Positions 1-64,000 of a DNA stretch of 64,000 nucleotides are shown here, piece by piece; within the stretch, counting starts at the first letter, position 1, and every line of letters begins with the position of its first letter. A program made the translations under genes and the position numbers. The DNA is from a virus (Duplodnaviria > Heunggongvirae > Uroviricota > Caudoviricetes): IMG/VR virus record IMGVR_UViG_3300022601_000011, one strand, 5' to 3'. The notes under the pieces were generated by a model. It worked only from the letters and a program-made list of their open reading frames with translations, did no database searches and was not told the origin of the DNA.

Positions 1-1
1 G

Positions 2-316
2 ACTTTCAAAAGTAATAGTAAACAAAACAGTTCGCTTGCCTTTTTCGTTAATTGAATCAGTCAAATTACTAATATAACCATTTTCAAAAACTAAAAATGC
101 AATTAACATGTCTTTATCACTAAATACCTGAATTTGCTCAATCTATTTACTCTAACCATATAATGCTTGCAAAAACTATATATTTTTTTCAAGTTCATTA
201 TCTATTTCTAATTCAAAATTAACTGCGCCTGCATAAGTATGTACTTTCATAAAATTACGATGATATTTATTAATTTTAATTGGATATTGCTCTTGTCCTT
301 GAATAATTAATTTCAT
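2..316 (-). CDS. hypothetical protein, 3'-partial (code 15)
   Basis: ATG at 316 with SD AAAGGAGG; the frame stays open to the window edge if three TAGs are read through (MKLIIQGQEQYPIK...). Confidence 0.7.
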
Positions 317-330
317 AATAAATACCTCCT

Positions 331-1011
331 TTATTTTATTTTTATCCAAATGCGACCATTAACTTGAATTTTATCATTCCAAATTTCATAAGTAGGAACG
401 CAAGAAACGATACCAATAATACGTTCTGGATACATCATAATTTCTTTTCTAGACATTTTAGAAACAGTACCATAAGGACCAGAACATACTGCGTCGCCCG
501 CTTTATATGTAGAACGATCTTCATTAGGATATGCTAATACTCTACCAGCCACAGCAATTGGAGCAGTAGCTTTTTCTGTCTCTCCTATAGAAAATCCAAA
601 AGTATCGGAAATAATCATAGCTCCTGGTAACATGCGTTCATGAGACCAAATTAAATCATCATTGCCTGTTTCAATTACGCATCTGCCAGCTTCATTTTTA
701 CCATTTAAAATACGATATTCGGCATAATCATTCCATACCGCACCTTTTACACTTGAAGCGCTTAAAGTACCAGAAAAGTCACCGTCAATACCAATTAAAT
801 CAGCTTCTAAAGTAAGCGGTCCTGTCATCGTTCCACCAGCTATTGGTAAAAATTCAGTGGAGGCAAAATCTGAGCCTCCACTGAGTTCGGGAACAACAGT
901 ATAACCAACTACATTTAAATTTTCTCTAGCTTCTGCTGCAGTACTGCCGTCAGTACCACCATCTTGAATACCAACTAAGCTAGAAGTATAAATTTTATAA
1001 GCGTCAGCCAT
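331..1011 (-). CDS. short tail-fibre-type protein with C-terminal intramolecular chaperone (Peptidase G2-like) domain
   Basis: FLPIAGGTMTGPL fibre motif, then GAVWNDYAEY...SDTFGF.IG...PIAVAGRVL...YPERI.G...GRIW; no TAG; ends TAA. Confidence 0.6.
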   Translation of the reverse strand: MADAYKIYTSSLVGIQDGGTDGSTAAEARENLNVVGYTVVPELSGGSDFASTEFLPIAGGTMTGPLTLEADLIGIDGDFSGTLSASSVKGAVWNDYAEYRILNGKNEAGRCVIETGNDDLIWSHERMLPGAMIISDTFGFSIGETEKATAPIAVAGRVLAYPNEDRSTYKAGDAVCSGPYGTVSKMSRKEIMMYPERIIGIVSCVPTYEIWNDKIQVNGRIWIKIK

Positions 1012-2053
1012 CTGTATTTTCCTCCTTTAATTTATCTAAAAACTCATATAAACCTATACAAGGAATAATATTATTTAACTTATCTCCCATATAAGCATTT
1101 TTCATTATATCATTATAATGCTATGCCATAATTTCTTTTGAAATTGTAGGTTCAAGTTCTTTAAAAATTGCATCATAATATTTTTTACATTGTTTTAAAT
1201 TACCTGGAGCATGTTGCGGAGCTCTTGCAGCACATTCAATATAATATTGATATAAATGTATCATACAAGTTACAGCCCACATAGTAATAAAACCATTGTA
1301 AGGATTTTTCTTTTTTGCCTCTTGAATTGCAAAAATCATATTTTCAACATAACCGTAAAAACTATCTCGATCTGAACTACCATAACTATATTGATGATCA
1401 TTAATTCTCGTAATACTATTTAAATTTTCATGCCAATAATAAACATGTGCAGCAATAAAGTTAATCTACTCTTTATCATTCATGCAAAGGCGGCACCAAG
1501 TATTAAATCCATTATCTTCATTGGCTCTTGAAGTCTCATGAAAATGAATACCATATTTGTCAATAAAGCTACGACGATACATTTTACCGAACATCCATAC
1601 TAAATCTTTTTCGTGGCTCATTAACATTGGTCCAGTTCCTTCAGGAATGTCTGTTTCATGTACTTCATCAAAAACTCCAACTGACATTTGATATAAACCA
1701 TTATTCATTTCAATAGCATTGCGCAAAGCTTTAAGAGCAAAAGCACCATTGAAAGTATCATCAGCGTCAATAAAAGTAATATATCCATTAGAAGTGTGAT
1801 CTAAACCATATTGACGAGCTACTCCTGGTCCACCATTAGTTTCGTAGCGTAAAATATTAATTTTTAACATTGAAGAAAACTAATTAATTACATTTTGATA
1901 ATTCTATTCTGTAGAAGCATCATCAACAATAGTAACCTCTAATTCAGAAATAATATCTTGGCAAGCGATACTAGCCAGACATCTAAACAAAATATTATCT
2001 GCTACATTATAAGCAGGAATAATAATATCAATATTACGATTATATTTTTTCAT
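1004..2053 (-). CDS. family 2 glycosyltransferase (349 aa, code 15)
   Basis: IDIIIPAYN, IVDDAS, NGGPGVARQYG, YITFIDADD and NED motifs; joins ORFs 1466..1870 and 1121..1339 across TAGs; ends TGA at 1004, overlapping the next start. Confidence 0.85.
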
Positions 2054-2079
2054 AAAAAATCTCCTTTTTCTCTATTGTC

Positions 2080-4686
2080 TTAAGCTCCGATTAATTTTAA
2101 ATTATAACGAGTATTTGTACAGGTCCAAGTTGTTCCTGTATCATCTTCTGTGTCCCAAACAATTCTACCTTCTCCGCATAAATCTTCATTATAAAAAGAA
2201 TCAAAAGTAGTAGAACCATAAGGCACTCGAATGTTTAATAAGGTTGGAGTAATTTCATCTCCAGCAATATTATATCCTCGACCTTCAAAAATACCATAAG
2301 CATCATATACATATTCAGATGCAATATTTAAATTACCCTTCAAGCTTAGACAATAACCATAAGTATAACTCATATTAGTAACATTTGCGCCTGATACACC
2401 AGTCGTTAAACTTCTACAATTATAATAGGCCCAAGACATATCTTCAACATTTGCACCACATTTTGCGGTACCAATAGGATAACAATCCATATATGCACCT
2501 TGCATATTAACTACATTCGCACCAACAACTGGAGTGTTCAAACCACCATAACCATATGTATCTACGCCAGATTTGCCGTTAAAGAAATAATTTTCTCTTC
2601 CGCAATAAGCATAAGCATAAGACATATCCACTACGTTTGCTCCACAAGCTGCTTTATTTGTAATACCGCTACAATACATATATGCACCATGCATATTTAT
2701 TACATTTGCTCCACATACTGCAGTAGTAATGCCAGAAGAATAATTCAGATAATCCATTGAATAATTATATGTGTCATAATCTGGATCTTCGCCTGAAGCC
2801 CAAGTTGCATTATAATATTCTATCATTTTAGAAATATAATATGCGCATCCAGCATAAGTTTCAATCATATTTACTACATTAGCACCACATACCGCAGAAG
2901 TTAAACTATGTCGGCCTTTATATGTACCTATCATATCTGTAACATTTGCGCCACATACTGGAGTAGTTGGCCCACGTTTTGCACTAACCGATTGTCTCCA
3001 TTTTGCAGTTCTATTTTCAGTTATGGTATATGTTTCATCGCCAAGGAACCAATCAGAGTAGTCTGATTCGGCCAAAGCATAAGTATGATCCATTATTTTT
3101 ACTTCTGCTCCACAAACAAATGATGTTAAAGATTGACAATTAGCATAAGTATATCTCATTTCTTGAACTAATGGTCCACAAATAGGTGTTACTAAACCTA
3201 ATCCATCAGAGTAAAGATTATACGCTGTTAGACTATTATCAGGAACAACTGCGGGAACAAAACAATTAGTATAAGTGTTATCCATTAAAGTAACAACAGG
3301 ACCACTTGCTGCAGTGGTTAAATTAGTACATTCACGATATGTATTAACCATCATTACTACTGAATCTCCACAAACTGCTTCGGTTAAACTTGAACATCCA
3401 TACCAGGTATCACCGATTGTACCAGTTTCTTCTGAATATAAAATTCCTGGAATGCCATTATTATTTTTATAACGGCCACTAGCATAAAAACCATAAGGAA
3501 TAGAATATGTAGAATCCATCAAGGTTACAGATGGTCCACAAGCAGCAGTTGTTAAATTAACACAATTACCATAAGTACCAATCATTTCAGTAACTTGGTC
3601 TCCACAAATTGCTGTTGTAATATTTGCACAACTAGCATATGTATAATACATATTTGTTACTCGTTCACCACATACTGCAGTAGTTAAATTTTTACAACCT
3701 GTACCATGATAATAACGCTTATTTATATATATATATGAACCACTATTCGTCTATAATGAGCTCTAACTCATACTACTATAAGTGTGATCCATTAAAGTTA
3801 CCATTGGTCCACATATAGGAGTAACTAATTTATGACAATTAGCATATGTACCATTCATATAAGTAACCTAATTTCCACATGCGGCTGTAGTTAAATTAGT
3901 GCAGTTTTCATATGTATTAACCATCTCTATAACATTAGGACCGCAAACAGCATCAGTTAATTTAATACAATTTCTATATGTTGATTTTAATTCTGTAACA
4001 TTACGTCCTACGTTAGCTGTAGTAAGATTAGTGCAATAAGCATATGTATAATTCATACTTACAACATTACGATCACATACAGCATCAGTTAATTTAGAAC
4101 ATTTATAATATGTATAATTCATAGTTGGTACATTTAATCCACACACCGCAGTAGTTAAATTAGTACAATTATAATAAGCATAATCCATATTAGTAACATT
4201 TGCGCCACATGCCGCAGCAGTTAATTTAGTACAATTATGATAAGCATAATCAAAATTGCGAACACTATTAGAACAAGCTGCTGGGCCTGAAATATTACTA
4301 CAATTAGTATATGCATGAGACATACTAAAAACTTTAGGACCACATTGAGCATTACCAGTCATAGAATAGCAATTATAATATGCATAAGCCATATTAATAA
4401 CTTCTGCTCCACTCTAAGGAGCACTAGTCATATTAGAACACCCATTAAATGCACGATACATAGATGTAATTTTATTATGTTCTGGAAATGTACATGTTTG
4501 TAATGCTTTGTCATTTTCAAATGCCTAATCTAAAATTGTAATATTAGGATGAGTAATAGTAACTGATTGTAAATTAGCCATATTTCGAAAAGCTTGAGCA
4601 AAATTTGTATCTGATAACTAAATACGATTAGGAATAGTAATCGCTGTAACCTATGGTTCATTTCTAAAATTTAATAGTCTAGCCAC
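2080..4686 (-). CDS. Cys-rich 22-aa repeat (BspA/DUF285-like LRR solenoid) adhesin or receptor-binding protein (868 aa, code 15)
   Basis: GTG start with SD AAGGAGG; many CGxNVxxMxYTYxNCxxLTxAV repeats; ORFs 3868..4392 and 2080..3651 are in frame across TAGs; ends TAA. Confidence 0.75.
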
Positions 4687-5256: not shown

Positions 5257-5442
5257 TTAATTTGTAGTTTGCTCTTGAGAAGTAACTACTCCATCAATAA
5301 ACTACATACTATGAATTGCATTATTACCCTAATCTTTAAATAAAATTGTATCATAAGGTTTTAGGGCAGAAGCTTCCAATTCTAATTTAAAAGCATTCCA
5401 AAATTTTTGCAATTCATCTTGTGTGATTGTACTTGCTGCCAT
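5257..5442 (-). CDS. small hypothetical protein, paralogue of the N-terminus of 4700..5230 (61 aa, code 15)
   Basis: MAASTITQDELQKFWNAFK...ILFKD*GNNAIHSM*FIDGVV; ends TAA at 5257. Confidence 0.65.
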
Positions 5443-6527: not shown

Positions 6528-6541
6528 TTAATATACCCCCT

Positions 6542-12204: not shown

Positions 12205-15200
12205 TTAGCCATTAGGATTGTGTTTTATAATAACACCAGGAGAGGATTGAGTACATCCAAAACAAGTTTCAGAATTCCAAGGAGCACTATTTAAATCAAC
12301 AGATTTTGGAACCCAAATTTCCTTTACCCCTGACAAATATGAGAAAGCACTATCTGCTAAAATAATATTTGGATTTTCGATAATAAGGATACCAAGATTT
12401 TCATCTGCCAATTTTCTAAACATAAATGCGCCACCACCGATTGAGGTAACAGTCTTAGGAATTACATTAGCTGTCAACAAGCCTCCAGCACCATTTACAG
12501 AACTCATACCTGAAGTGCCGATAGAAGTAAGATTGCTTGGGAAATTATTGATATTTAACATTGGAGTATGACCGAAGCCAAAATCTTTAATTGTAGATAG
12601 TCTATTAGTAGAATCAATATCAAAATTCAAAACTAAATTACTACAATAATCAAATGAATACTAACCAATTGTAGTAACTAAACAATTGATAGTTTCGCCC
12701 TTGATCTTAAGATTAGTACAACGTTCAAAAGCGTAATCAGGGATTTGTGTGAGCTAAGTATTATTAATTGTAATTTCTCCTAAAGATTCACAAGACCTAA
12801 ATGCATTAGGACCTAATGATTCTAACTTATCAGGTAAAGCAGAAAAATTAATTGAAGAGCAATAAGCAAAAGCATTAGTGTCAATTTTTGTAACGCTATT
12901 CGGCAGTGACTTAAATGTTAAATTAAAACAATTCATAAAAGCTTGAATACCGATAAGTGATAATGAGCCAAGAGCAGACAAATCACAGAATTCAATATTC
13001 TTGTTTTCTGCCATAAAATTATTGCCGATAACCTTAATTGTATTTCCTTCTTCGAAGAAAATACGACGTAAGTTCTTAGGTTGCTAGTCGCCATACTCTA
13101 CTCTAACTAGACCAACAGGTTTTCCGTCATAAGTAGAAGGAATAATAATAGCCTCGTCTGCAAAGTCAGGTTTAATACCAATAGCGATTTCATCACTGGT
13201 AAGATAATCTACACCTTCACTAACACTCGCAGGTTTGAAGTAATCTCGACTAATTTCATCGCCTGTCATTTTGGATAAAGGTTTCTTTGTACCATATTGG
13301 GCGATGGTATTAAGCTCCATAACAATATTGTCGTAAGGAAGATTATAACCAATAAAAGGATAAGAGTAAGCAACTGTCTTATCGTTTTCGGGCAATTCAA
13401 GTTTCTGCGGATTCTGAGGAGGAGTCGCTGACTAACCATATTTTACACGCTCAACCTTTAATGGCTCACTATTTATACCATCGTAGAAACGAACAATATG
13501 AGTGTTCAAATCTGCGGCGTAAACTGGATAAAAATTAATTTCTTGGTCAGTACCAAATGCATCTATGTTCAATTCAAAACCATTAACTTTTTCTGCGGTA
13601 TAGGTATAATTATTATCTTCATCAATAGTATAAGATACTTTAATTGCGAGAGAATCTGCAATAGCTTGTTCTCTCTCGTCAGAAGTATAATCACGTTCAG
13701 AGAAATCTAATGGCTTCTCTAATCCCCAGCCACGGAAATCATAAATATACTGTGCTGTAGATTGTTTTACAAGAGGAGGCAAATGATTTGTTTCGTCATA
13801 ATTTTTTGGAACACGAGAAACTTCACCTGTTACTTCATCTACAATCTCATTATACTCTAAAACAACTGGAGTGAACCAAGATTCTAAATTCTCACTATAT
13901 GTAGCAATATCAGTAGCTTTAATTTTCTTTGAATAAGAATAAAGAATTTGTGATTGAGCATTATTAATATTAATAGAATAGGCTTTTGTACAATAATTAT
14001 TTTCTGTATACTTAAATTGTAAATTAGGGAATAAAATACTATACTTTTCATATAGTGTCAATTCATTAATACCATAATTATTGCCATTAAGAATAGTGAT
14101 AGTTCCTGCCAAATAGTCATTATTCATATCTGCTCTTGTAATATTGTTACCTGCAGTATTTAGACCATTTAAAGTGACCAAAATATCTAATAGTGGAATA
14201 TTAGTTAAAACATTATCTTTAAATACGCATTCATCTACGTCAAAAGTCCAATCTAAATCATCTAAGCGAATATTTAAAAGAGAGCTAACATCATTACCTG
14301 AACTAGCAGTATAAATAGTATTCTTAAACAAAGTCTTAGAATCAACAAGAGGACAATTAGTAATATGCATTTTTGCTAATCTACGATAGCTCTCAATGCT
14401 CAAATTTTCAGGATGATCTTTAGTATTAAAGAACAATTGGCCGTTCAAGGAGAGAGCAGTAGTGGAAGATGGCAATTCTATGTGCTATAAGTTTCCACCG
14501 GGATAGAAATTTACAGTAGTAATTGCTGAGCCTTTTGCATATACTTTTTGTAAATAAGGACAAGCAGACAAATCCAAAGCATCTTTAATACCGGAACAAT
14601 TTTCAATATTAATTTCCTCTAGGAATGGAACATTTGCTCCCTTCTCACCAATATTAAAAATATTTGCCGTACCAAGGTTCGGATTACTGAAATTACCTTC
14701 GTGAGAACCAAGAATTAATTTACGTAATTTTGTTGCCTTATTTAACTGGAACTTATTAAAGTATTTGGTAGAAAGGTCACCCAGTTCAACAATATCATCA
14801 AGACCATAGATATACATTTCTTGGTCAGTCGATGTCTCAAAAGGACTATCAACATGATAAGGCTGATTTGCATAAATTCGAACAGGACCAACAATATTTC
14901 CTTGAGCATAGTCAACAGTTACATATTGGTCTGCTAATGAAATGAAATCAAAGTCACCAGAGAACTTGGGCTTACCTGCGCCTTGTGCTAGGTCAGAATT
15001 CAAACGGAAGTTCAAACCAGAACCTGCAGAAGAGCCTAATACCTCTTGAGAATAATTATATTTAGAATCTAAATAATTAAAGCGCTTTTCTAACCAATAA
15101 TTACGATGCTGCGAACGAGTACCTTGAGCGGCATATAAATAGTTTGCAGCACTCTTCTTCTTAGCGCCTTCAATTTTTGCTGCTTCTTCAGCAGTAATAA

Positions 15201-18200
15201 TATTGCCTTCTGGATCGAACCAAACTTCATATCCGCTAACAAGAGGATCAATGTATTTATAATCGGCGTCTTCGTTAATATAAACTTCTTGCCAAGCGTC
15301 TGCTTGATCAGCGTTATAAGCTCTTAAAAGACGATTATAATTAAATACTCCACCTTTGCGTAATTTTTGATACATAGCTTTAATATCGCCAAAACGAGCA
15401 TCTCGATAATTACACCACAATACACTATATTGAGTAGCATCATAAGTACCTGCGGCATTAAAAGTATCAAGTTGATTATCCTCTTGGCTATATGGGAAAC
15501 GTAAGTTACCAGAGTTATCAACACCAAGCATTGTGTCCATATCATAGAAAATAGGCATCCAATGTCCAGTATTATTTTCTGGATCGGCATCAAAACATGC
15601 CATCATCATGTTCTTAGCACGAGAGTCAATCATAAGAAGAAACTCTGTAATGACATAATAGAAAGCAACAAAATCTGGAACAAAATATTCAGCAAATTCT
15701 AAATTAAATTTATTTAATCTGGCTTCTTGTTCTGCTTTAATAGCTTCAGGAGAAGTATCTTTTCCCTGTTCTGCTAATTCTTTTGCTACAACGTCAGGAT
15801 GTCTATTAGTAGATGCAACCCAGTTTAACATTCTTGCTAAAGTACGTTTATCAGTTGAAGCTTCCTCTTCATGTTCTGGATAACGAGATTCAAAAGCGCC
15901 TGTCCAGTCAGCATAAGGAGCATGATCTACTACAGTTTTTCCGGTATCATCTTTATGAGTTATTTCAACTTTATCTACTTCTTCATCCCAATATTCTCTA
16001 AATCCAACTAATGGACTAGTATTATTTAAGAACTCCCAACATTGAACACAAGTAACGCCTTCTTCTGCGCTCTTATATTCATACATTGGGCCAATAGCAG
16101 CTTGCTTACCAAATGCCTTTTCGCGGTCTTCTTCTGTAGCTTGAGTGAATTCAATTTTAGTGGATTCTAAGTTAGGTTCAGAATAATATACTTTTCCATC
16201 GGTAAATTCAAGAGCTGTATTAAAACCGTCTCTTAAAGAGCCATCCGCATTCTGTAAATAGCCCCAAGGTTTCTTCTGGGAACCATATGCCTCCATTTCG
16301 GATTCAAAACCGAATAATTCATGAGTAGCTTTATCTAAATTAAAATTATAACGACCTATATATTGATAACGATCCGGGAATTCTGCACTTGCTTTATATG
16401 GCTTATAGAAACAAACAATAGGATGTCCCAAAATCGCAGTTACAATTCTATTATCTGGATAAGCTGCCGCAGCAGGACTCTTTAATCCAATTGAATTATA
16501 AAGTTCATCCAAAATATTAGCAGTACCAGTATTATGAGCACTAGCAGATTCCATGTAGTCTGCTTTTAAAGTAAACAAGTTAACAGCGGGAAGTTTATCT
16601 TCTAAAGAATATTTAGCAATTTGATTCGGGTGATTGCCGTCATCCTTCTTGCGGAAATAAATACGCAAGTTCTTGACAGGATATTCCAGAGAGGAAGTAC
16701 CTTGAGCGTAGCAAGTAACAATTACTGGACTATCAGGAGTACCAATATTATATTTTTCACCACGAATTGGGTCAACATAATACATTTCCATGTGACGGAA
16801 GTCCTTTTTACCAGTTGGCAATCTAGATTCATCAGAAGTCGGGAATTCGCCGTCTTCAAAATCAGGGTCTTCCCAGCCTTCATCTTTCTTACTACCGGTA
16901 TCACGACCATCATAAAATACCATATAAGGAATATTGCCAAGCTTTATAACTTCTTCAAGGTCAATACCAGTTGTTCTATCTTCGAAGGTAGTTAAAACAT
17001 CATTCTATTTCCATTCTGCTGCTGCGTCAGTAGCAGAAGATTTATCTGCGATGCAGTTACGAAGAACATCATTTGGTCTCAATGAAGATTGATAAACTCT
17101 AATTGAATAAATATCAATATCCATATATGAAGAATCAAAAATAAATTCAGAATCGAAAATATTTTTATCTTTATCTTCAGATAAGTCAATAAATTGGTCT
17201 GTTTCTGTATAAGCAGATAGAGAAGAAGTAACACCATTTAAGAAAGTATAAAAAATACGAGGAGGAGTATCATTTACACTATTAATAACATAGGTTAAAT
17301 GAATACGTGTTCCTGCTTTGAACATCGTAGTCCATCCACTCATATCAGTAATTTTAGATTTTACCTAAGCAGAGTTCATCTGACTCTTATTACCATAAAT
17401 CTAAAAACCTACTTGGGTAATTTCTTCTTTGGTGCCATCATCTAATTCAGCTGTATAGTAAGAACGGCATTGAATACCAGGAGCCATTTCATCGCGCACA
17501 TTAGAAATCTTGAAATCTAATTCAATAGTACGACCTAAATTTTCTGCACCCAAACCGTTACTATCAGGTTTAAATGGAGAATAAGGAATAACTACTTTTG
17601 CGCCATTGGTAAGATGTAAACCTAAACCGTCTGGGCCTTCAATCCAACCATTAGTGTTCCAGTTAAAGTTAGAAAATTGTGCTTTTACTTCTCCACCATA
17701 ATACTTAGAAACCCAAGTATCTTTATCTTGGCTATTATTAGACTTACCTTTAGAGGTGAAGTATAACATTAATGATGGATCAGCAGTATTGATTACTGGA
17801 ACTTCTTCATCAAAAGATTCAACAATAATTGGAGTAAAGATTTTGGCATAATCGGTTTCATTTTGGTTTGAATCCAAATAAATAATTGATAAATAATAAG
17901 TTGCAGCTTTATCAAAAGTTACATTCCAATTATAGAATTCCTTATTATTGATTTCAACAATCATTTCTTCTCCGACTACGCGAGAGCCAAAGCCTTCATC
18001 ATATTCTGCTAACAATTTAACGTATGAAGTACTTGTTGCTCCATATGTAATCATGTAATCGATTTTAATTTTATCGTACTGTGTGGCAGAAGTAATACCT
18101 GAAGTGGCAGTAATTAGAGGAGAAGAAGCATTCGCATTATAAAATGGAATTTCGATTTGAATAGGAGGAGAAGTTAAATACTCTTCAGATTTAGGAATCT

Positions 18201-35167: not shown

Positions 35168-35554
35168 TTATTCCTCCTCGTTAATAATTAAAGTTAATCC
35201 TTTCACTTGAGCAGGAGTAAAATCCATATTCTCAATTAAACTTACTGGAATTAAATGCAAATTTACATCTACTGTAAAACTGTCAAGTTCTTTACGAGCT
35301 TCCATGCATTCATCTAGTAATTCTGGAATAATTTGAAAAGTATTCGCAGAACTTTGAATAAAATTTCCTTGTTCATCTTTCTGCAAATATTTCGTTGCAA
35401 ATTCTTGCTCTTGACGAATATAAAATTCTTCTTCTTTTTCAAGCATTTCAATATTCTTAGCAATAATTAAACTAAGTTTAAATGACATCTTCATTTCTTG
35501 AAGCTCTTTAAGAGCCTCAAGAATAGATGAAAGTTGCATATAAGTTAAAGTCAT
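35168..35554 (-). CDS. small helical phage protein (possibly DUF1617-like)
   Basis: Intact 128-aa ORF with SD; MSFKLSLIIAKN...Y..KDE.G pattern. Confidence 0.6.
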   Translation of the reverse strand: MTLTYMQLSSILEALKELQEMKMSFKLSLIIAKNIEMLEKEEEFYIRQEQEFATKYLQKDEQGNFIQSSANTFQIIPELLDECMEARKELDSFTVDVNLHLIPVSLIENMDFTPAQVKGLTLIINEEE

Positions 35555-53274: not shown

Positions 53275-53799
53275 TTAACCAATTTTTTCAAGAACATCTT
53301 TAACTAAACTATCTTTTCCAAGTTCTCCTAGATCATTCATTAAACCTTCTACATTCATTTTTTCTGCATCATAATTATCAGTGACTGTTTTCATCATACC
53401 GGCAAAAGAATTTAAATAAGATACAATATTTTCAGCACATTCTTCGATAGCGTCAAAAATAGCATTATATTCATCTTCTGGAATATTTTCAATAATTTTA
53501 TCAATTACGCCATTAATCATTAAACTATCATAAGTTTTTGGAGCATTCTCCATCATCTTATCAGTAATATTAATATTTGTATAAGTAGAAATGATTTCTA
53601 ATACTGAATATACTTCTAATTTTACCGGATTTAACACTCCAGTAGTGTCAATACTCCAATTTAGAATGCGTTCAATCATTGCCAATTTTTCTTGTACGGG
53701 TAAATATTGTATAATTTCTACATCTTGTTCACAAATCTATACCAATACGGGCGCAACAATTTTAATTGGAGTAATTTTACTTAATGAAATTTTAGCCAA
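53275..53799 (-). CDS. hypothetical protein, possible tail assembly chaperone (174 aa, code 15)
   Basis: TTG start after SD AAAAGGAG; TAG at codon 21; lies directly upstream of the tape measure. Confidence 0.6.
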
Positions 53800-53831
53800 A
53801 ATTTTCACTCCTTTTTCTCTTCAATGATTAT

Positions 53832-53860
53832 ATTATAACAAAAAATTTTTTATCTGTCAA
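53832..53860 (-). promoter_or_regulatory. consensus sigma70/sigmaA promoter with extended -10
   Basis: TTGACA-gataaaaaattttttgt(17 nt)-TATAAT, including TGn before the -10. Confidence 0.85.
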
Positions 53861-55098
53861 GATTGTTTTAAATTATTTTTCATCATAGTCTCAATTTCTT
53901 TTCTGGTGCATTGCTCTAATACTTTATTTGCTTTATTAAAATTTGATTGCTATTTTAATAATATTCTTTCTGTTCCTGCGGTAGCAATTTCTTGCAAAGC
54001 ATTAACAGTATTTTTCACAACTTGCACCAAAGTTTTTCCTAAAGATATAATACTTGTATAACTAGCGATATGACGATCATTATTGTCAAAAAAAGCTTTA
54101 ACCTATACATTGCCTACGTCACCACCGATATACCATGGATCATCGCCCAATGAACGTTGTAATGCTTCATAAGCTGATGGTACTTCACGACCCGCCAATC
54201 TTGCTTGATAAATATGTTCATAAGCTTCTGCCAAATGACCTCTGTTTAAGCGACCTGCAGGTTTTTTCCCCTAATCATAGAATAAATAATTATACATTGC
54301 AGCCTATTTTTCTTCAATTAATGACATAATGGCATTTGATTCTTCTGAAAATTTTCGAGTTACATCATGTAATGCATCTAATTCATTACCTAAATGCTTT
54401 TTAGATGCAGTATCTTTTATTTCTTGATATTTATTCTATACGTCTTTTAAAAAACTATATGTTTCATCTACTAATGCCTCTAAATCTGCTGCTAACATCT
54501 CATCCCAAACTACATCAGAAATTGCTCCATTTACAGAGCGAGAAGATGTTATTTTTGAAAATAATCCTTCTGCCTAAATAACTTTAGCAGATAATTTAAT
54601 GTTACCAGCATTATCAATATATAAATATTTTGAATTATATAAATCTGAAGTTTTAATTTCTCCACGCATAATCTCTTGTGGATTTTCACCATAAAAATAT
54701 ATTGAAAATAAAGCAGTCTATGTCTAATTGTTTGATAAAATATCTAAAATTTTATGTTCTAATTTAAATGCATAAATAATTTTTTGATTTAATTTAGCTT
54801 TATGACTTTTTGTTAAAAGTAATAATTCTGATAACTTTCTTCCATATTCTACTTTTGTCGAATCTTTTTTACGAGTTGCTATTCTTCTAGAATATTCTTT
54901 AGATAAACGATTTTCCCCTATAAACTATTCTTTAAGTATAGTAATTTCATTTAAAGTATTATCTAAAATAGTACAACTATTATTTAATATTCTTCTATTT
55001 ACTTCATTCATTGAAGTAAGGTTATCTTTTATAGCTTCTGCAGTACCACTTCTTACAAATGCTTCTTCAACAGAAACTCCAAATACACTACCTGCCAT
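53857..55098 (-). CDS. hypothetical protein with possible C-terminal PD-(D/E)XK-like motif (413 aa, code 15)
   Basis: Whole frame read by hand with only TAG interruptions; SD AAGGAGG; NRGHLAEAYE...PWYIGGDVGNV*VK; ends TGA. Confidence 0.7.
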
Positions 55099-55113: not shown

Positions 55114-55647
55114 TTACGACAATGGATTAATCTAATCTTCAACACCCTAAACTGTACGATAAATTAATGTAAGTCCACACAACTATTCATTTAATAATAA
55201 ATCGTCTGCACCTTGAAACTCTACTTCACCGATACCCGTTAATTTAGTTTTATTTAACATAGCATCAATTTCACCAGCTATTTTATATGGGCGCAAAGCA
55301 AAATTACCTAAATGCCAATGATCAGGATGACAAATAATATCAATTTTTATATTAAAATCACGGAACTCAGGATTTTTATAATTTGGTAAAAATCTATTAA
55401 AAGTTATTACAACATATATAGGACAATCTGAATCAATAGGTAAATATGGAGTAATTTTAATCTAATTATCAATTAAACTTAATTTTTCTTTGGGCGTTAA
55501 ATTTTCCGCTTTTAAACAGTCTCGCTACGTATAATATAATAATTTACATAATCTTTGATTTTCTAGCATTTTATTAACAATTAATGCTAAATTTTTATCA
55601 ATTGATAAAAAACTAGATTTTGGAAAATAATTTTGTCCTACTCGCAT
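55114..55647 (-). CDS. putative tail completion protein (177 aa, code 15)
   Basis: MRVGQNYFPKSSF...NPEFRD...DIICH...LRPYKIAGEIDAML; SD; adjacent to the tail tube gene; ends TAA. Confidence 0.6.
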
Positions 55648-55731: not shown

Positions 55732-56793
55732 TTAAGCTTTGGCAGTAAGAGCGCCGAAGCCAGCCTTGTCTTCAACAATCTGAAGTGCGGCAAGAACCTT
55801 CTTAGTGCGATCAAACTTAGTATAGTCCGGGAAAGCGTCCATTGTGAAGGTGAAAGTAGAAGGATCTCCGGAAGGAGCCATGGTGAAGGTAAAGTTAGAC
55901 TGAACCTTGCAGTTCGGGATAACGAACTCTGCAGGATGGTCTTCACCAGTACCCTGATCACGGAACAAGGTAGAAGCTTCAAGATAGTAAGATCCACCAA
56001 ACTTATCAGCTTCGATATCAATCTGCTTAACACCAGTGTCAGCCTTTACATAATAGTCAACAAAAACTACAGTACCAGGTCCAATAACGATGTTATTAGC
56101 TTTAGCCTTATTGTAAGCAGCAATTTCTTCAACAGAGGCATCTTCAGTAGGCTTGATAAGAGTTTCATTAACAGTATACTCTAATGGCTTAAAACCATTT
56201 ACAGTTTTATTACGTTCATTATAATCTACAATGAAAGCCTTAATCTTATTAACAAGACTTTCGCCTTCGCCATTTACAGGATAAGATTCTGCATAAACAC
56301 CAGGTTCATTATCACTACGGCCTTCAGGCTTAATCATAATAGGCATGAAGTTAGTATTAATATTACCATATTCATCCAAAAGCATCAAATACATATCTGC
56401 AAACTTACCAGCTTCACCAGCAGAAGGCTTGGTTTCAAAATTCAAATTGCCATCAGTACTAATTTCAAGCTGACCGGTCTGGTGAACATAGATAGCTTTT
56501 TCACTAGAAGCATCCATGAAACCAGCACCAGAAAGAATAGAGAAGCTCTGAGGACTAATCAATGCGTCTTCCATAGTGAAAGTAACGGTACGGTCACCTT
56601 CCCAAGCAACAAGACGAGGATTACCTTTACCACCCTGAGCATAAACAGTAGTAGCTGCGCCTTCAAGGTTAGAGGTCTTCAAAGTATCAAAGAAAAGAAC
56701 AGGCATGTCCTTTTCCAAATAAAGCTTACCGAACCAACCAGCGGCCTTACGACGTAATACTACGTCACAAATTTCGCGTACGCCAAATTTCAT
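55732..56793 (-). CDS. major tail (tube) protein
   Basis: MKFGVREICDV, YAQGGKGNPRLVAW, NFTFTMAPSGDPSTFTFTMD; high-expression codon bias; no TAG; followed by a strong terminator. Confidence 0.75.
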   Translation of the reverse strand: MKFGVREICDVVLRRKAAGWFGKLYLEKDMPVLFFDTLKTSNLEGAATTVYAQGGKGNPRLVAWEGDRTVTFTMEDALISPQSFSILSGAGFMDASSEKAIYVHQTGQLEISTDGNLNFETKPSAGEAGKFADMYLMLLDEYGNINTNFMPIMIKPEGRSDNEPGVYAESYPVNGEGESLVNKIKAFIVDYNERNKTVNGFKPLEYTVNETLIKPTEDASVEEIAAYNKAKANNIVIGPGTVVFVDYYVKADTGVKQIDIEADKFGGSYYLEASTLFRDQGTGEDHPAEFVIPNCKVQSNFTFTMAPSGDPSTFTFTMDAFPDYTKFDRTKKVLAALQIVEDKAGFGALTAKA

Positions 56794-56815: not shown

Positions 56816-57559
56816 TCAATGTATATTTTTCATCCAGTCATCGGGTTTATCCTCTGGCTTGCCACCAGCTAACCGAGACTTTATATCTAAATCCCACGAG
56901 ACATATAGGCCGTATCTTTCAACCAGATCAAACATTTGATAGACAGTCAAATTCAAACAGTCCTAAAATGACATGGTATTTAGACCTATTGTGAGAATAG
57001 AAACATATCTAGACAAAATGCCACCTTGATTACGAGTTTCACCTTTCAATTCAGCAACCTTTTGTTTACCCTTCATTAACTTATTCGCAATTTCCTATGC
57101 TTTTCTACCAACGGGATTATAACCACCATCAGCACCTTTAAAAATAGAAACTTGCGGTTTAAGTATTTCTTGAAATTTCTCAAAAGTTACATCATCAAGA
57201 GTGAAAGACGAACCTTGGCCATTATTAAAAAATAGGCATCTTGGAGTAAACTGAACACGATAGCCTGGGAAGAGTAATTCAAAAACCTAAATAACTTGTG
57301 CCTTTTTGTCCTCCATGCCAGGTTGTTGTTCAGTCATCATTGTCATAAATATCTAAAAATTACTCATAGAACCTAATCTAGAATTGTCCTCTGCAGAACT
57401 TAACACTAATGTATTTTTATCAATACATAATAATTGAAGGCCCGCAAAATAATTCAATTCTCCAATATATGAGATTTCTAGAATTGTTGGCTAATGAACA
57501 GCCATCTAAATTTCTGGAAATGGAATATCAACACCAGTCATTAACATTAGAGGGTTCAT
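56816..57559 (-). CDS. hypothetical tail morphogenesis protein (247 aa, code 15)
   Basis: MNPLMLMTGVDIPFPEI*MAVH*PTI...LTVYQMFDLVERY...WMKNIH TGA; SD AAGGAGG; absent from the ORF track. Confidence 0.7.
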
Positions 57560-57570: not shown

Positions 57571-58515
57571 TTAGAACAGTGACTATACAATAATGGTCTT
57601 TTCAAGATCTCCATATTTTAATACATAAGATCCACTAACCATTGAAATCCAAGTAACAGCAATTGAACCATCTTCTCGAATTTCCCATTCAACTGTATCT
57701 TCAACATCTTTATTGTCTGATGCTAAAGTTACAACCCAATTAAGATTAGGATTATAAGATGTTACAGTATAAATAGATTGCTCTAAAGGCTTTACAAAAG
57801 TTTCGCCTTCAATAGTATCTTCATATTCTTCAACTGGAGGATTAGGATCTACCACTTCCACCAATAAATCGCTGTGATGACATTCATAGTCTTCAACAGC
57901 AGGAATTTCGATGATTCCTGGAGTACTAATAGTATCAGGAGCAACAATCTGCCAAAAACGTCCACCAAATTCAAAAGTAACATATCGTTCAAATAAACGC
58001 ATATTCTATTCCGTTTTCGGAATATACAATTGTAGTGTCATATTCGGCACATTGGCTACTAATCCCGCTTTTTGAATTGTATTTAATTTAGTTTCAACAG
58101 GACCACGCACTGCTGCCCAAATGCTAACTTTATCACCAGTTTCAGGATCAGTAATTAAAAGTTCTTGACATCTACGGACATTACCACGGAAGTAAGCAAC
58201 TTCAGTCATCTCTTGTTTAAGAATAATCCAGTGCGTTCCAGTATTTTTCCATTCAAAAGTGTCTCCAGGTCCAAAGCCATGTTCGTATTCGACTGATACA
58301 ATTTTTTCATCATAATCGAATTTTACTTTATCAGGATTGATTAAAGCACGAACATAGTCTGCGTCTTCTACTCCATCTTTTTTAATCCACGCTGTTTGAT
58401 AAGAATATAATAAAGCGCGATGAAGAGAACGCAATTTATCTTTAACCATGCGATCATGCTGGCGATCATTATTGGCATGCTTCGCACGCAATTTTAACAG
58501 ATTCAAATTTTCCAT
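57571..58515 (-). CDS. putative head-closure/neck protein (314 aa, code 15)
   Basis: Two ORFs in frame across TAG 58006; ends IIV*SLF TAA; position in the neck gene block. Confidence 0.6.
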
Positions 58516-58817
58516 TAATTCAATCCGTTCATCAGTTCAGTAAGCAAAGAAATTGCTCCGAACACGATTACTCTATAAGACATAAAATTATCGATTTGCG
58601 GCAATCCCTCAAGCTTAGAAAGCAAGACGAGAAAGTTGAGTTGACCGCCAAAGATCTCATGCAAACCATATAATTCATTTAAGACTGTATCTAACTATTT
58701 TTGCCAGTCCTCATTATTTTCTTTCATTGGAAGTAACTTCCAAGTCTGATTAATGAGTCTGCGTAAATCCACTCGAATTAGTTCCTCTTGAAAATTGCCA
58801 CCATAAGTAGTAATCAT
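58515..58817 (-). CDS. hypothetical protein (100 aa, code 15)
   Basis: ATGA overlap at the start, TAATG overlap at the end, one internal TAG. Confidence 0.7.
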
Positions 58818-59284
58818 TCAATAGCGCTGGTATCCAACAAACATGACCAGTTTGAAGAAACCGTTCCGTCTTCATTAAACTTACGTCTTTTGTAAAGACG
58901 CTGTGCGTGAGTAGACTCACGAACATTCTCTGATTTCAACTGCAAAAGCTTCGACAAATGGTTGGCTTGAGAGGTCATTTTAAAATCAGAGCCGGAATAT
59001 TTCATTCGAGTGTGTTCAACAGAATTTATCTAACGTTCAAGCCATGCTGTTTTCATCAACAAAGCAAGAATGTTAATTTCCTCGTCGGTTAAATCTATAT
59101 TATATTCTTCCAACTCTACGTTGTAATCATACAAAGCAAAACGAGGAAATTCAAAATAAGGAATGGCATCCAATAGAAATGATTTAGCGTCTCTCAAAGT
59201 ATCTTCTGGGGTGAGTTCTAAATACATATCATCGGTAATTTTACCGAGAAACTTATTTGTAATAGTTTCAAAGGATGTCGCCAT
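58814..59284 (-). CDS. putative head-tail adaptor (156 aa, code 15)
   Basis: ...WLER*INSVEHTRMKYSGSDFKMTSQANHL; two ORFs in frame; ends TGA. Confidence 0.6.
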
Positions 59285-59289
59285 ATTGA

Positions 59290-59859
59290 TTACTCTCCTT
59301 CTGGCTTTTGTACTGATACAACCTTGTATTGGGGAGTTGTTCTACGGCCTTCTGTTGCCGCAGGCTTTACGCGACGCTGTGGAGCGGCGGGTTCAATCTT
59401 GCTATCTTCTTCTTCAGCCAACTGCTTATTGCGCAGAATGGTATCTACATCGAAGCCAGTAGCTTTCTTTAAAGCCTTACGCTTTTCTACATCGTTAAGA
59501 GGTAGCGCAACAGCATGCTTCTTAACAAGGTCAATTACACCGGCAGGTGCAAAATCCAAACAATCCAAGAAAGCATCAAGAGAACCTTCAGTAAGAAGTT
59601 TCTTTACGCCTTCATCATCAAGCCAATATTCAGGCTCAACATTCATAGAGATATCATTAAGTGTCTCTTGGTCTACAACCAAAAAGCGTTGAATTAAATT
59701 CGCACCACCAGAACGATAAGTAAGTGCCTCAATTTCTTCTTTGGCGATTTTCTTAGTCTCGCCGGGTGCGTACTCACGACGGATATTCATCTCAGGGATA
59801 GAATATACGACAGTAGAATTACTGCGGTTTTTTACCGCAACCTTGTTAATATTTTCCAT
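59290..59859 (-). CDS. conserved hypothetical protein after the capsid gene
   Basis: Intact 189-aa ORF with SD; no TAG. Confidence 0.75.
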   Translation of the reverse strand: MENINKVAVKNRSNSTVVYSIPEMNIRREYAPGETKKIAKEEIEALTYRSGGANLIQRFLVVDQETLNDISMNVEPEYWLDDEGVKKLLTEGSLDAFLDCLDFAPAGVIDLVKKHAVALPLNDVEKRKALKKATGFDVDTILRNKQLAEEEDSKIEPAAPQRRVKPAATEGRRTTPQYKVVSVQKPEGE

Positions 59860-59933: not shown

Positions 59934-60977
59934 TTAGATAGCGCGAACAACGTCCATCTGACCAAGAAGCTCGGTATCCTGATATACGCAAATGTCAGGG
60001 CTGGTAATTACGCCAACGCCAACTTTCTTGTAAACCTGGATTTCACGGCTACGGTCATGGGTATGCATTTCCTGAACCAAAGTATCGCCTTCGAAAGCAA
60101 CCTTAACGGGCTTGTCGTGGCCGGTAGGAAGAATCCAAACATAACCAGGATCAACCATCTTCTTCTCGTTGGTTTCATCCTCGAAAGCCTGAGGAAGAAT
60201 TACAACGCGATAGCCCTTGTAGTTTGCGAAGTAGCCCTTTGCCCACTTCTCATCACGCATAGCGTCAGAGATCCAGCCTTCAGCAGGAATCATCTTAACA
60301 GCAAACTCATAGGTACAATAGATGGAAGGAGTGCCGTATGCGGAAGCAACGCTCAACAAACGGTCGAAAGCAGCCTCATCAAAGCCAGCTGCGGCAACCT
60401 GATTTGCACGAGGAAGCTGATTGATAGAGCTCATAAGAGCCTTAGCAATCTCACGATAGATAAGTTCATCCATACCTTCCATAACGATCTTGGTAACTTC
60501 TGCAAAGTCAACACGACCATCAAGGAACTCTTCGAAACCAATTGCTGCGGCTCCGCCGATAGCGCTGGTCTGAAGTTCGAAAGGACGCTCTTTACCAAGC
60601 TTGAAGACTTCGTAAATACCATTCAAGCCAACCTTGGTAATGAACTGCTTGGCACGATTGTGGTAGTTGCCCTTCACGGTAAAGATAGGCTTGTCGCCCT
60701 GCTTGTAAACTTTGGTTTCTGCAAACTGACCATAGTTTTCCATAACCTTCTTGGGAAGAACAAGGTCAATAGTCTCCTCGATAAGGGAGAAAATCATATT
60801 CTTATTTTCACGATAAAGTGCATAAGTACCAGCGTACTCATTCAATTCCTTACGAAGAGTCTCATTAAGAGCCTCGTAAGAAAGGTTCTCACCGTTAAAG
60901 CTGTAAGCAACAGGATTGGAGCGATCAGCTTTAGCAGTAGCCTGCATCAATTTCAAAAGTTCATTTCTTTCTAACAT
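59934..60977 (-). CDS. major capsid protein
   Basis: 347 aa; position after portal, protease and head protein; strong codon bias; tandem TAA TGA plus terminator; no TAG. Confidence 0.8.
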   Translation of the reverse strand: MLERNELLKLMQATAKADRSNPVAYSFNGENLSYEALNETLRKELNEYAGTYALYRENKNMIFSLIEETIDLVLPKKVMENYGQFAETKVYKQGDKPIFTVKGNYHNRAKQFITKVGLNGIYEVFKLGKERPFELQTSAIGGAAAIGFEEFLDGRVDFAEVTKIVMEGMDELIYREIAKALMSSINQLPRANQVAAAGFDEAAFDRLLSVASAYGTPSIYCTYEFAVKMIPAEGWISDAMRDEKWAKGYFANYKGYRVVILPQAFEDETNEKKMVDPGYVWILPTGHDKPVKVAFEGDTLVQEMHTHDRSREIQVYKKVGVGVITSPDICVYQDTELLGQMDVVRAI

Positions 60978-61001: not shown

Positions 61002-61691
61002 TTACTTAACGCGCATTACCTTAACAGCAGGCTGAAGGTCAGGAAGGGTGTACTTCTTAACAATCTGCCATACCATCTTGTCAGCCTCAATATCGCCGCC
61101 AGGAGTCAAAATGCCCTGTTCGCCAATCTTAAGGAAATCGCCAACTTTAACTTCATCAAAAGTAGCCTGAACCATGTTAGTGGTAAAGATATCGCCTTCA
61201 TGGGTCTTCCATACACGTGGAACCATGACTTCGCCAGCCTTCATGTAAGCGGGAACTTCAAGAACTTCGCGCTCGTAGGAAGGACCAATTGGGAGACGTG
61301 GAAGATCGCCGTCATAAGGATACTTCTCTTGAGAGAAATTCTTAGTAAGATCGGCTTCTGCCATAGAACCGTCAGAATTCTGACCGATTGGGCTATAAAC
61401 ATAAGCATTATAATCGCGCTTAATCATAGCGAAATCTTCATCAGTCTGATGATCACGATAAATCTTAATTTCGTTGTTAACAAGCATCCACTCACCGGGA
61501 CCCTCGAAATCAACAACACCAGCAGCATAATTATACTTTACGAACTGACCCTGCTCAAGGACTTCGATATCAGCCTTTGCTGGGAGCTGGCCGTAAATTT
61601 CACCAGTAAAGCGTGCGCTAAGGTGATTGGGTTCAACCTGGCCAAAACCACGCTTAACCATCTTGGCCTGTGATAAACTCTTAAAAGCCAT
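61002..61691 (-). CDS. putative head decoration/cement protein
   Basis: Between scaffold and capsid; GFGQVEPNHLSA...YTLPDLQPAVK; no TAG. Confidence 0.55.
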   Translation of the reverse strand: MAFKSLSQAKMVKRGFGQVEPNHLSARFTGEIYGQLPAKADIEVLEQGQFVKYNYAAGVVDFEGPGEWMLVNNEIKIYRDHQTDEDFAMIKRDYNAYVYSPIGQNSDGSMAEADLTKNFSQEKYPYDGDLPRLPIGPSYEREVLEVPAYMKAGEVMVPRVWKTHEGDIFTTNMVQATFDEVKVGDFLKIGEQGILTPGGDIEADKMVWQIVKKYTLPDLQPAVKVMRVK

Positions 61692-61709
61692 TTTAAGCTT
61701 CCTCCTTAA

Positions 61710-62435
61710 TTAAATCATGTTTTTGGCAGTATCACGCACAGCTTTAATCCAAGCTGGTGCATTGTCATTGCCGTCTTCAGCAGTCACATTATAAATAAGA
61801 CTTGCTTCAGCTTCTTCTTTATTATCTTCGTCAAGGCTAAAGCTTACCTTGTTACGAACACATAGAATTGCCAACTTTGCTTCAATATCATCCAAGCTGT
61901 ATGTATCAATGTTGGCCAAAACATCTGCCTTATCTTCATCAGAAAGCATATAGAAACTATTAATCATATTTTCCTTTTCTTTCTTATCAGCGGCAGTTTT
62001 GAACTCACGCAAAGGAGCAATTTCAGCTTCAAGCTCTGCTACACGAGCAGTTGCGAGTGCATATTCCTTAGCGAGTTCTACATACTCAGGAATCTCTTCA
62101 AGGTTGTACTTCTTTTTCTTATCTTCTTCACAAGTACATTCAGACTTTGGCTTGCCACAATCAGGGCACTTTTCCTCGTCTTCCTCTTCATTTTCCTTAG
62201 CATGATTCATCTTTTTCTTCTTTTTCTTATCCTCGTCATCATCTTCATCGTCTTCTTTAGACTCTTCAGACTTGCCTTCGGATTCATCGTCCTTCTTTGG
62301 AGGGAAAGGAGGTTTCTTTTCTTCTTCTTCTTCCTCTTCCTCTTTGGACTTTTTCTTGAATTCATCCTGATTATCAAGGACGATTTCAGTTTCCTGATTT
62401 TCGTTCTCAATCATGATGTTCTCATTCTTTTCCAT
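61710..62435 (-). CDS. nested in-frame scaffold protein from an internal start (241 aa)
   Basis: GAAGGAGGAG-CTACTCAT-ATG inside the protease gene, at the domain boundary. Confidence 0.55.
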   Translation of the reverse strand: MEKNENIMIENENQETEIVLDNQDEFKKKSKEEEEEEEEKKPPFPPKKDDESEGKSEESKEDDEDDDEDKKKKKKMNHAKENEEEDEEKCPDCGKPKSECTCEEDKKKKYNLEEIPEYVELAKEYALATARVAELEAEIAPLREFKTAADKKEKENMINSFYMLSDEDKADVLANIDTYSLDDIEAKLAILCVRNKVSFSLDEDNKEEAEASLIYNVTAEDGNDNAPAWIKAVRDTAKNMI

Positions 62436-63110
62436 ATGAGTAGCTCCTCCTTCTTGTAAAGCTGTCTTCAATTCCTCAATCATGGAGAAAAGCTTAGCTT
62501 TAAAGTCCCCATCAATGGAGAATTGTGCGGCAATACCAGCACCCTCGAAACAAGGTTCGACGTCTTCTCCAAGAATACAAAGTTTTGAGATAATTGCTTC
62601 GTTGATAATGAAAAACTTTGGCATTCCATTATCATCAGTCGTCCAAGTTCCTTTGGTTAGTTTATTATGAAGTTCCATAGACTGGTTATTTCCTTTTTCA
62701 ACTATCCGCTTAGATTCTGGATAAATATCAGACCAAATATAACCTTCGGTCATAAGATACTCATGCTCTATTCCATCATCCAAGGATTTTTGGAACCAGA
62801 CTTTAGCCCCTAAATCAACAAAACCATATGGGCGGGTAGTATCGATAATATTAAATTTTCCATTAGAAACATCAATCATACGATTGTGTTCCTCGAAGTC
62901 ACCTTTCGCCTCATTATAGTAACCTACAATTGGCGAACCCGGCAAGGTCTTAGCCATATCTGTGGCTACCGCCTTAGTAATAATACTACGGTTTCTATTA
63001 GGGTCTTCTCCCACATAACACACCTTAATTTCGCACTTGGAAATAAGGGGGTTTATGGGAGTGAAGTTAAGCAATTCAATAGTATGTTCGACTGGAATAC
63101 TAATATGCAT
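61710..63110 (-). CDS. prohead protease-scaffold fusion
   Basis: N-domain VCYVG..PNRN.S, LPGSPIVG, NQSMEL, LCILG.DVEPCFEGA; charged linker and coiled-coil C-terminus. Confidence 0.7.
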   Translation of the reverse strand: MHISIPVEHTIELLNFTPINPLISKCEIKVCYVGEDPNRNRSIITKAVATDMAKTLPGSPIVGYYNEAKGDFEEHNRMIDVSNGKFNIIDTTRPYGFVDLGAKVWFQKSLDDGIEHEYLMTEGYIWSDIYPESKRIVEKGNNQSMELHNKLTKGTWTTDDNGMPKFFIINEAIISKLCILGEDVEPCFEGAGIAAQFSIDGDFKAKLFSMIEELKTALQEGGATHMEKNENIMIENENQETEIVLDNQDEFKKKSKEEEEEEEEKKPPFPPKKDDESEGKSEESKEDDEDDDEDKKKKKKMNHAKENEEEDEEKCPDCGKPKSECTCEEDKKKKYNLEEIPEYVELAKEYALATARVAELEAEIAPLREFKTAADKKEKENMINSFYMLSDEDKADVLANIDTYSLDDIEAKLAILCVRNKVSFSLDEDNKEEAEASLIYNVTAEDGNDNAPAWIKAVRDTAKNMI

Positions 63111-63133
63111 TATCTAACTTCCTCCCTCAGCCA

Positions 63134-64000
63134 TCAGCTGGCTGACTCCTTATTTTGAATGGTCTTTTCAGATTTTTGACCATCCGGCTTTTCAGGACGT
63201 CCACCTTTTGATTGTTCAGTAGACTGTGCCTAATTTACCTAATTTTTCCCCTGACCTTTTTGCCCTAAAATGTCCTCACCTTTCATAGTGGAAGACATCA
63301 TAGGAGGAATCATAATTTCATAAAGATGTAGAATTTCATTTTCAAAATGAGCATTAGCAATAACTGCACTCTGGGAATGTCCCATAGCAATTTGTGGCAA
63401 CATCTTGGAATAACCAATAGTAACCTGCTCTTTATACATCTTCGCAAGCTCGATGTAGTTGTAGACTGTCGTCTCCAACATAAAGACGCGGAAATTATAT
63501 TTCTTCTTCCCAGGGAATTTATGTCTAACAATCTTATTTAAAAGATTCTAGAACTGTAAAATAAGACTTCTCATAGATGCTTCGTCGTTAAGAATAGACT
63601 TTTCAAGAGCGATATTACCATCAGTATTGAAAAGATTCTGTGAAACGCCAAGAGCATTATAAACAGTACGTTCAACCTTATTCAAATCGTCAGTTGAAGT
63701 TGTAGTATTCTTATCAGCCAAATCGGCAACTTCTACATCAGCAAAAGTAGTAAGAACGTCAACACCAACTGCCTTCTTTAACATTTGAACGGCATTATTA
63801 TGAATGTCTTTTGCTTCATCAACGTCGAAAATCAAATCGCCATTCTTGTCAAGCGGCAATTTTTGAATAATAATTTTGAGAAGTTTCTGCATTGTCTTAC
63901 GACGATCTAAATCCTGCGCGGCATCCAAATCCAAAAGAGATGGAATCGCATTAACCAACATAGGATAGTCAGTGCCGCAAATATTTAACTTAATCGCACA
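63134..64000 (-). CDS. portal protein, 5'-partial (code 15)
   Basis: ORFs 63548..63961 and 63239..63481 are in frame across TAG; C-terminal GGRPEK...KTIQN; ends TGA just before the SD of the protease gene. Confidence 0.7.

Follow-up and report, generated by a model that had tools for sequence, protein, structure and literature searches.

The locus considered here raises a simple question: why do so many of its genes appear to be broken off at the codon TAG? It is a 64,000-nucleotide (nt) stretch of phage DNA (IMG/VR record IMGVR_UViG_3300022601_000011; Caudoviricetes), which was analysed at its whole length and is referred to as the window. Its GC content is 34%, and almost all of its genes lie on the minus strand. 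Our results indicate that the window is a real and well-supported case of code-15 recoding, of an already published kind, in which TAG is a sense codon and, as judged from alignments, is most likely read as glutamine (Gln). The window is likely to represent the virion-gene block of a large siphovirus of Bacillota, probably a gut phage.

Coding cover, taken as the share of the minus strand in open reading frames (ORFs) of at least 100 amino acids (aa), rose from 0.518 under code 11 to 0.974 with TAG as a sense codon. There was no comparable gain with TGA as a sense codon (code 4; 0.519) or, as a control, with TAA (0.565); the increase thus exceeds the gain of 5-10% under TAG read-through, but not under code 4, by which a code-15 phage is recognised. 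Read-through yielded 38 merged genes, which together with a gene cut by the window start occupy 0.98 of the window. These genes form a contiguous operon with full-length matches in relatives, and the hallmark portal, tape measure, capsid and tube genes are all present. In frame they contain 243 TAG, 452 CAA and 125 CAG codons, with at least one TAG in 29 of the 38 and none in the other 9. Addition of a 61-aa gene (2 TAG) and of the cut gene (3 TAG) brings the total to about 40, the number of tiled genes with Shine-Dalgarno (SD) sites that had been proposed in a first-pass annotation made from the sequence alone. Of 37 gene starts, 33 have an SD-like motif in front, as opposed to 15 of the 132 first ATGs that follow an in-frame TAG.

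It might be argued that the TAG codons arose by nonsense mutation as a prophage decayed, or by faulty sequencing, as code 11 leaves the genes fragmented: the 15 fragments reported for the tape measure gene and the 8 reported in 12205..19200 were reproduced when code-11 ORFs of at least 60 aa were counted. However, none of the merged genes contains a frameshift or the in-frame TAA or TGA that the annotation had named as evidence against read-through. The tape measure frame runs for 3795 codons without TAA or TGA, for which the chance probability is about 1e-101, and profile matches extend across TAG positions. TAG codons also coincide with Gln columns, other assemblies have them as well, and 61 of 80 relatives are recoded. 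Decay or error is refuted by these observations, and we give it practically no weight. Other parts of the annotation need qualification. TAATG junctions at 6015, 10038, 11965 and 58515 and an ATGA junction at 31990 are all present, but the statement that such couplings appear only after read-through holds for 6015, 10038 and 11965, where the last TAG lies 5-12 codons before the gene end, and is loose for 31990 and 58515, where the last TAG is 95 and 59 codons away and the junction is reachable without read-through. That TAG ends none of the reconstructed genes follows from how they were built and is hence circular. Recoding of the "whole late region" is correct as to the sense reading of TAG but overstated in scope, because PHROG and Pfam searches identified no terminase or lysis gene in the window and 9 of 38 genes lack TAG.

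A capsid search returned 303 viral relatives, and the best 80 of these were examined. Coding density increased under code 15 in 61, the other 19 used the standard code, and no TGA-recoded relative was present among the 80. On a capsid tree with 48 distinct rows, standard-code lineages were interleaved with recoded ones, with at least three changes of code. Near-complete relatives were 156-201 kb in length. The named relatives were phAss-1 (51% capsid identity), Enterococcus EF1-like phages (38%) and Bacillus, Clostridioides and Brevibacillus phages. Of 35 labels of metagenome-assembled genomes (MAGs), 27 were Bacillota or Mollicutes, probably reflecting co-binned phage contigs. On account of these labels and the hosts of the named relatives, we infer that the host belongs to the Bacillota and is likely clostridial.

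Which residue does TAG specify? In a comparison with the 80 loci, the standard-code relatives among them had Gln at 10 of 23 alignable TAG sites, a proportion similar to that for CAA (16 of 36). From 49 relatives' records, 14 (10 recoded and 4 standard) were chosen. Conserved columns at TAG sites in these records contained Gln in 10 of 16 cases, glutamate (Glu) in 2, and leucine (Leu), tryptophan (Trp) or tyrosine (Tyr) in none; the Gln:Glu ratio was 10:2 at TAG columns versus 3:91 at GAA (p = 6e-10). In an empirical likelihood test run in four settings (36-89 sites), Gln ranked first each time, with a lead of 26.6-63.6 log units. The TAGs compared with another assembly of 94% nucleotide identity (L115) were shared in 3 of 3 cases, while the closest relative, G001, had TAG at 13 and Gln at 12 of 51 alignable window TAG sites. 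It is the alignment of TAG sites with Gln that leads to the assignment of code 15.

The window contained no detectable tRNA or Rfam family, and no tRNA was found in the relatives' loci L001-L060. Among the 14 chosen records, ARAGORN detected a tRNA(CUA) in every one of the 10 recoded genomes but in none of the 4 standard ones. Identity elements for Gln are G73, a weak first pair and U35. Among 11 suppressors from the recoded records, G73 was present in 10, the remaining one not having been parsed, and 8 have U1. The G001 suppressor has a 23-nt extra arm, and a long arm occurs in 4 of these 11. A long-armed, partly Trp-like suppressor might suggest a residue other than Gln; a rough isotype profile score, run without a working control, was scattered between Trp, Tyr and Gln and ranked Trp first for 4 of 10 suppressors, including that of G001, and Glu was the second commonest residue aligned at TAG (10 of 63 sites). 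Set against this, Gln is ahead of Glu by 27-64 log-likelihood units and ahead of Trp, Leu and Tyr by at least 60, and an Escherichia coli tRNA-Trp with a CUA anticodon is reported to be charged with Gln (PMC2965240, citing Yaniv 1974). We regard it as very improbable that TAG encodes Glu, Trp, Leu, Tyr or serine, or that its reading is ambiguous.

The extra arm may deserve attention in its own right. An initial idea that it was Tyr-derived was dropped. All 11 long-armed suppressors in a wider set, drawn from five lineages, carry in the arm the stretch Y-U-Y-U-G-R-R, which resembles a Gln anticodon. RNAfold produced a clean 7-nt loop for this stretch in just 1 of 11 arms, so that an anticodon-mimic structure is not established. 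The idea that the arm forms a second, Gln-type anticodon loop and acts as a handle for host glutaminyl-tRNA synthetase (GlnRS), with some form of RF1 silencing and neither synthetase nor release factor supplied by the phage, is put forward as speculative and rather doubtful. No description of an extra or variable arm for code-15 suppressors came up in the literature searched, although one may exist in print. Among other tRNA features of the relatives, a tRNA gene of G001 (L196 17351-17877, minus strand) is split at the anticodon loop by an insert of about 450 nt, which encodes a PD-(D/E)XK endonuclease (PF11645, E 2e-25). Two adjacent, related tRNA(CUA) genes are present in G003 (L278, 155824-156182), and unusual tRNA calls comprised Arg(GCG), Ser(AGA) and a degenerate tRNA with anticodon TCA (L283 of G049, L284 of G047 and L196 14640-14821 of G001).

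The first-pass annotation had placed a suppressor tRNA and/or a release-factor function elsewhere in the genome. The relatives lend little to the release-factor part: RF2 was present in 2 of 49 records, both with one capsid sequence, and was not found in G001. The two release factors are at L262 865-1929 (G042) and in L261 (G045), and that of G042 is an RF2 (TIGR00020 above cut-off) without TAG. GlnRS was above cut-off in 0 of 49 relatives' records; two weak PF00749 matches were rejected as they were below cut-off and contained stops. The glnS gene was present in four of four clostridial MAGs holding relatives and absent from one Erysipelotrichaceae MAG. To look for recoding-specific proteins, genes for proteins of fewer than 1000 aa were taken from three of the recoded genomes and compared with all 14; no protein occurred throughout the 10 recoded genomes while missing from every one of the 4 standard ones. 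Closest to such a pattern came an RNA ligase (G001, L195 14743-16209), which all 10 recoded genomes and 1 of the 4 standard ones encode but which is confounded by kinship, and two small proteins, which 7 of the 10 recoded and none of the 4 standard genomes have and which G001 lacks. No such protein is claimed because the standard set represents two lineages.

Usage of TAG is strongly uneven. In the window, the capsid gene, the tube gene and two capsid-neighbouring genes have TAG at 0 of 38 Gln codons versus 243 of 782 elsewhere. In recoded relatives TAG accounts for 5 of 733 Gln codons in the capsid gene and 7 of 490 in the tube gene, as compared with 36-49% in portal, neck and tape measure genes. 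The replication block of G001 has 9 TAG among 398 Gln codons, confined to 3 of 37 genes, while its terminase has 5 TAG in 505 codons and its structural genes also contain TAG. The host itself might read TAG as sense, with no need for a phage switch, given that no tRNA was found in the window. This we consider hardly credible, for the relatives' genomes are split into TAG-rich late and TAG-poor replication blocks, the relatives carry their own tRNA(CUA), and standard-code phages are interleaved on the tree.

The explanation that we favour, and hold to be highly probable, is that about 250 in-frame TAG codons are read as Gln, probably by a phage tRNA(CUA) that would be encoded outside the window and charged by host GlnRS. 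The TAG-interrupted frames and their Gln alignment are direct observations, as are the tRNA(CUA) and the nearly TAG-free replication block in relatives. Early genes would be translated with the host code, expression of the tRNA array would follow, and the suppressor would then outcompete RF1 such that late genes are completed. In late genes of low copy number, drift under AT-biased mutation would most likely let TAG build up, and TAG would be purged from high-copy and early genes; gating of late genes would then be a consequence and not a selected purpose. In our reading TAG carries a cost, and it drifts into genes whose expression is low. TAG avoidance in capsid genes was likewise not described in the literature searched, although an account of it may exist in print.

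Alternatively, TAG may be under positive selection as a timer of late and lysis genes, as put forward by Borges et al. (10.1101/2021.08.26.457843), in place of drift after arrival of the suppressor. The near absence of TAG from G001 replication genes and its presence in structural and terminase genes fit this model, as do several window genes with a single TAG near the start. Yet when TAG share was compared with the expectation from each gene's own third-position bias, a crude neutral model, no window gene was above and many were below; the capsid and tube genes are ungated; and standard-code lineages with the same gene set occur among recoded ones, with repeated code changes on the capsid tree. 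Judged from virion, terminase and replication genes, a timer is a serious possibility but to us a somewhat unlikely one; the model has its strongest case in lysis genes.

Several observations weigh against the favoured explanation. Out of 243 TAG sites, the number with an alignment good enough for a vote was only 16-89, and Gln has the majority at about 30-60% of these, as for CAA; there may be a minor second residue at TAG sites. The Gln reading in the window phage is a prediction from sequence. Its tRNA(CUA) is predicted from relatives, with 83% capsid identity to the nearest that is near-complete, and the four standard genomes represent two lineages only, one genome being 77% complete. The neutral-expectation model is crude, and the proposed host derives from relatives and from MAG labels that are probably due to co-binning.

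Recoding of this kind has several precedents. In several clades of gut phages (Agate, Jade, Sapphire and others), Borges et al. (10.1101/2021.08.26.457843) report structural genes with TAG recoded to Gln, codes that differ between close relatives and, in two TAG-recoded Agate phages, RF2; charging by host GlnRS is already hypothesised there. In common with the code-15 phages in that report are the TAG-Gln alignment, recoded structural genes, mixed codes, a suppressor tRNA, no GlnRS and the rarity of RF2. In contrast, suppressors were present in all 10 recoded relatives here versus 40% in that survey, and Agate is reported to include TGA-recoded phages. Agate is marked by large genomes, mixed codes and occasional RF2 in TAG-recoded members; the relatives here reach 201 kb, number 61 recoded against 19 standard, and have RF2 in 2 of 49 records but no TGA-recoded member. 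Proteomics by Peters et al. (PMC9523058) confirmed TAG as Gln in crAss-like phages, and suppressors are treated by Yutin et al. (PMC7886860) and by Kienbeck et al. (PMC10879173), the latter scoring 19.4% as Trp type. Late-gene TAG-to-Gln recoding is shared with crAss-like and Lak code-15 phages (PMC7886860, PMC9523058), but these have unrelated virion genes and Bacteroidetes hosts, and the window phage is a separate lineage.

One named relative is phAss-1, which was described by Babkin et al. (PMC10607447; OQ749652) as part of a larger group in which codes are mixed and the predicted hosts are Clostridia; the proposed genus Phassvirus is reported there to have an unusual Ig/Hoc-like capsid protein of about 1700 aa. 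The portal, capsid, neck and tube are homologous between phAss-1 and the window, with the same order from protease to neck, and the capsid gene is free of TAG in both. The same report attributes to phAss-1 the TAG-to-Gln code, a tRNA-Sup-CTA, no synthetase and a predicted Clostridia host, traits shared with the window or its relatives. However, only three short blastn matches were found in the 41 kb compared, the tail genes are arranged differently, and phAss-1 is 136 kb in length versus 156-201 kb for the near-complete relatives. The window falls short of the roughly 80% nucleotide identity and synteny with phAss-1 expected within Phassvirus, and the two phages, by these sequence comparisons, are in different genera. 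The wider phAss-1/EF1 group is described as monophyletic, on trees of terminase, capsid, tape measure and PolIII (PMC10607447), and the window phage may belong to it: phAss-1 and EF1-like phages gave the best named capsid matches and were among the best matches of the G001 terminase. EF1-like, phiCD211, Sundance and SPbeta-like large siphoviruses (capsid 25-39% identical, G001 terminase 31-50%) share a YomU-type tail tube with the window, and EF1 is reported not to be recoded (PMC10607447), unlike the window.

As recoding itself is published, including for phAss-1 (PMC10607447), the window adds a clean member, and its annotation is fixed: code 11 loses nearly half of the coding sequence. The question that it sharpens is one of efficiency. 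With 92 TAGs, the computed yield of full-length tape measure is 0.9%, 16% and 40% at 95%, 98% and 99% read-through per codon, respectively, so that about 98% or better must be attained in a host expected to keep RF1. Most relatives lack RF2 and a synthetase, yet near-complete read-through against host RF1 is needed. Recoded and standard lineages with one gene set offer a good system for studying RF1 neutralisation and drift versus regulation. A natural, highly efficient amber suppressor would serve genetic code expansion, and the route to such complete read-through and the role of the extra arm in charging are the parts worth bench work.

Table 1. Genes and signals of the window, from the portal end to the window start
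Feature	Position	Strand	Match or basis	TAG and remarks
Portal protein, C-terminal part (cut by window end)	63134..64000	-	PHROG 2739, E 1.7e-47	3
Likely prohead protease/scaffold	61710..63134	-	PHROG 3313 (function unknown); role by position	1 (codon 7; may precede true start, Met9)
Head-associated protein (inferred role)	61002..61691	-		0; CAG 11/12 Gln
Major capsid protein	59934..60977	-	Bacillus phage PJN02 major capsid protein, E 2e-14	0; CAG 12/12 Gln
Terminator-like hairpin, strong	59912-59886	-	Directly after capsid gene	
Conserved protein after capsid gene	59290..59859	-		0
Conserved likely neck protein	58814..59284	-		1; column Gln in 19/19 standard-code loci
Conserved 100-aa protein	58515..58817	-		1; column Gln in 19/19 standard-code loci
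Conserved likely neck protein	57571..58515	-		2; last one 3 codons from end, relatives Glu/Gln there
Conserved 247-aa protein	56816..57559	-		6; 4 in columns Gln in 19/19 standard-code loci
Tail tube protein (YomU/Tube family)	55732..56793	-	PHROG 2729	0; CAG 8/8 Gln
Terminator-like hairpin, strong	55714-55683	-	Directly after tube gene	
Virion structural protein	55114..55647	-	PHROG 6123	5
413-aa protein of unknown function	53857..55098	-	Match only in closest relative	9
Sigma70-type promoter (12/12, extended -10)	53860-53832	-	Before gene 53275..53808	
Conserved protein of about 175 aa with own sigma70-type promoter	53275..53808	-		1
Terminator-like hairpin	53238-53205		Downstream of gene 53275..53808	
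Tape measure protein, 3795 aa	41790..53177	-	PHROG 34405, Pfam PF10145	92/261 Gln codons
Large likely tail protein, 2038 aa	35582..41698	-		34
128-aa protein	35168..35554	-		0 among 9 Gln
Conserved likely tail protein, 1058 aa	31990..35166	-		12
Tail protein, 828 aa	29507..31993	-	PHROG 1887	15
Conserved 112-aa protein	29154..29492	-		1
Tail fibre-like protein, 1523 aa	24580..29151	-	PHROG 7032, 25620	12
Five likely fibre/accessory genes	24234-24539, 23848-24186, 22592-23824, 20982-22577, 19278-20951	-		0, 1, 0, 3, 1
2331-aa protein, BspA leucine-rich repeats at C-terminus	12205..19200	-	Pfam PF13306, PHROG 14959	11
Five genes	11965-12189, 10616-11965, 10038-10505, 8338-10038 (Ig-like), 7682-8308	-		1, 0, 4, 1, 3; TAATG junctions at 11965 and 10038
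Three Gp10_C-type baseplate/tail paralogues	6542-7654, 6015-6527, 5446-6015	-	Pfam PF21939	4, 4, 2
Two small genes	5257-5442 (61 aa), 4700-5230	-		2 each
Sigma70-type promoter (12/12)	about 4735-4705	-	Upstream of gene 2080..4686 and glycosyltransferase gene	
868-aa BspA leucine-rich-repeat protein	2080..4686	-	Pfam PF13306	7
Family 2 glycosyltransferase	1004..2053	-	Pfam PF00535, E 6.7e-19	4
226-aa protein	331-1011	-		0
Gene cut by window start	2-349	-		3

Several features of the window may be noted in addition (Table 1). The capsid sequence had no match by sequence among solved structures. Both strong hairpins follow TAG-free genes. The tandem Gp10_C-type paralogues (5446-7654) are mostly without a match in the 14 relatives, and the glycosyltransferase gene, which sits among tail-fibre genes, has homologues in 7 of 14 relatives, all 7 of them recoded. 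Since the conserved gene of about 175 aa, which lies inside the late block, has its own promoter and is followed by a hairpin, it may be transcribed separately, possibly by host polymerase. Of 67 relatives, both recoded and standard-code, 61 have this promoter site with a score of 11 or 12 out of 12.

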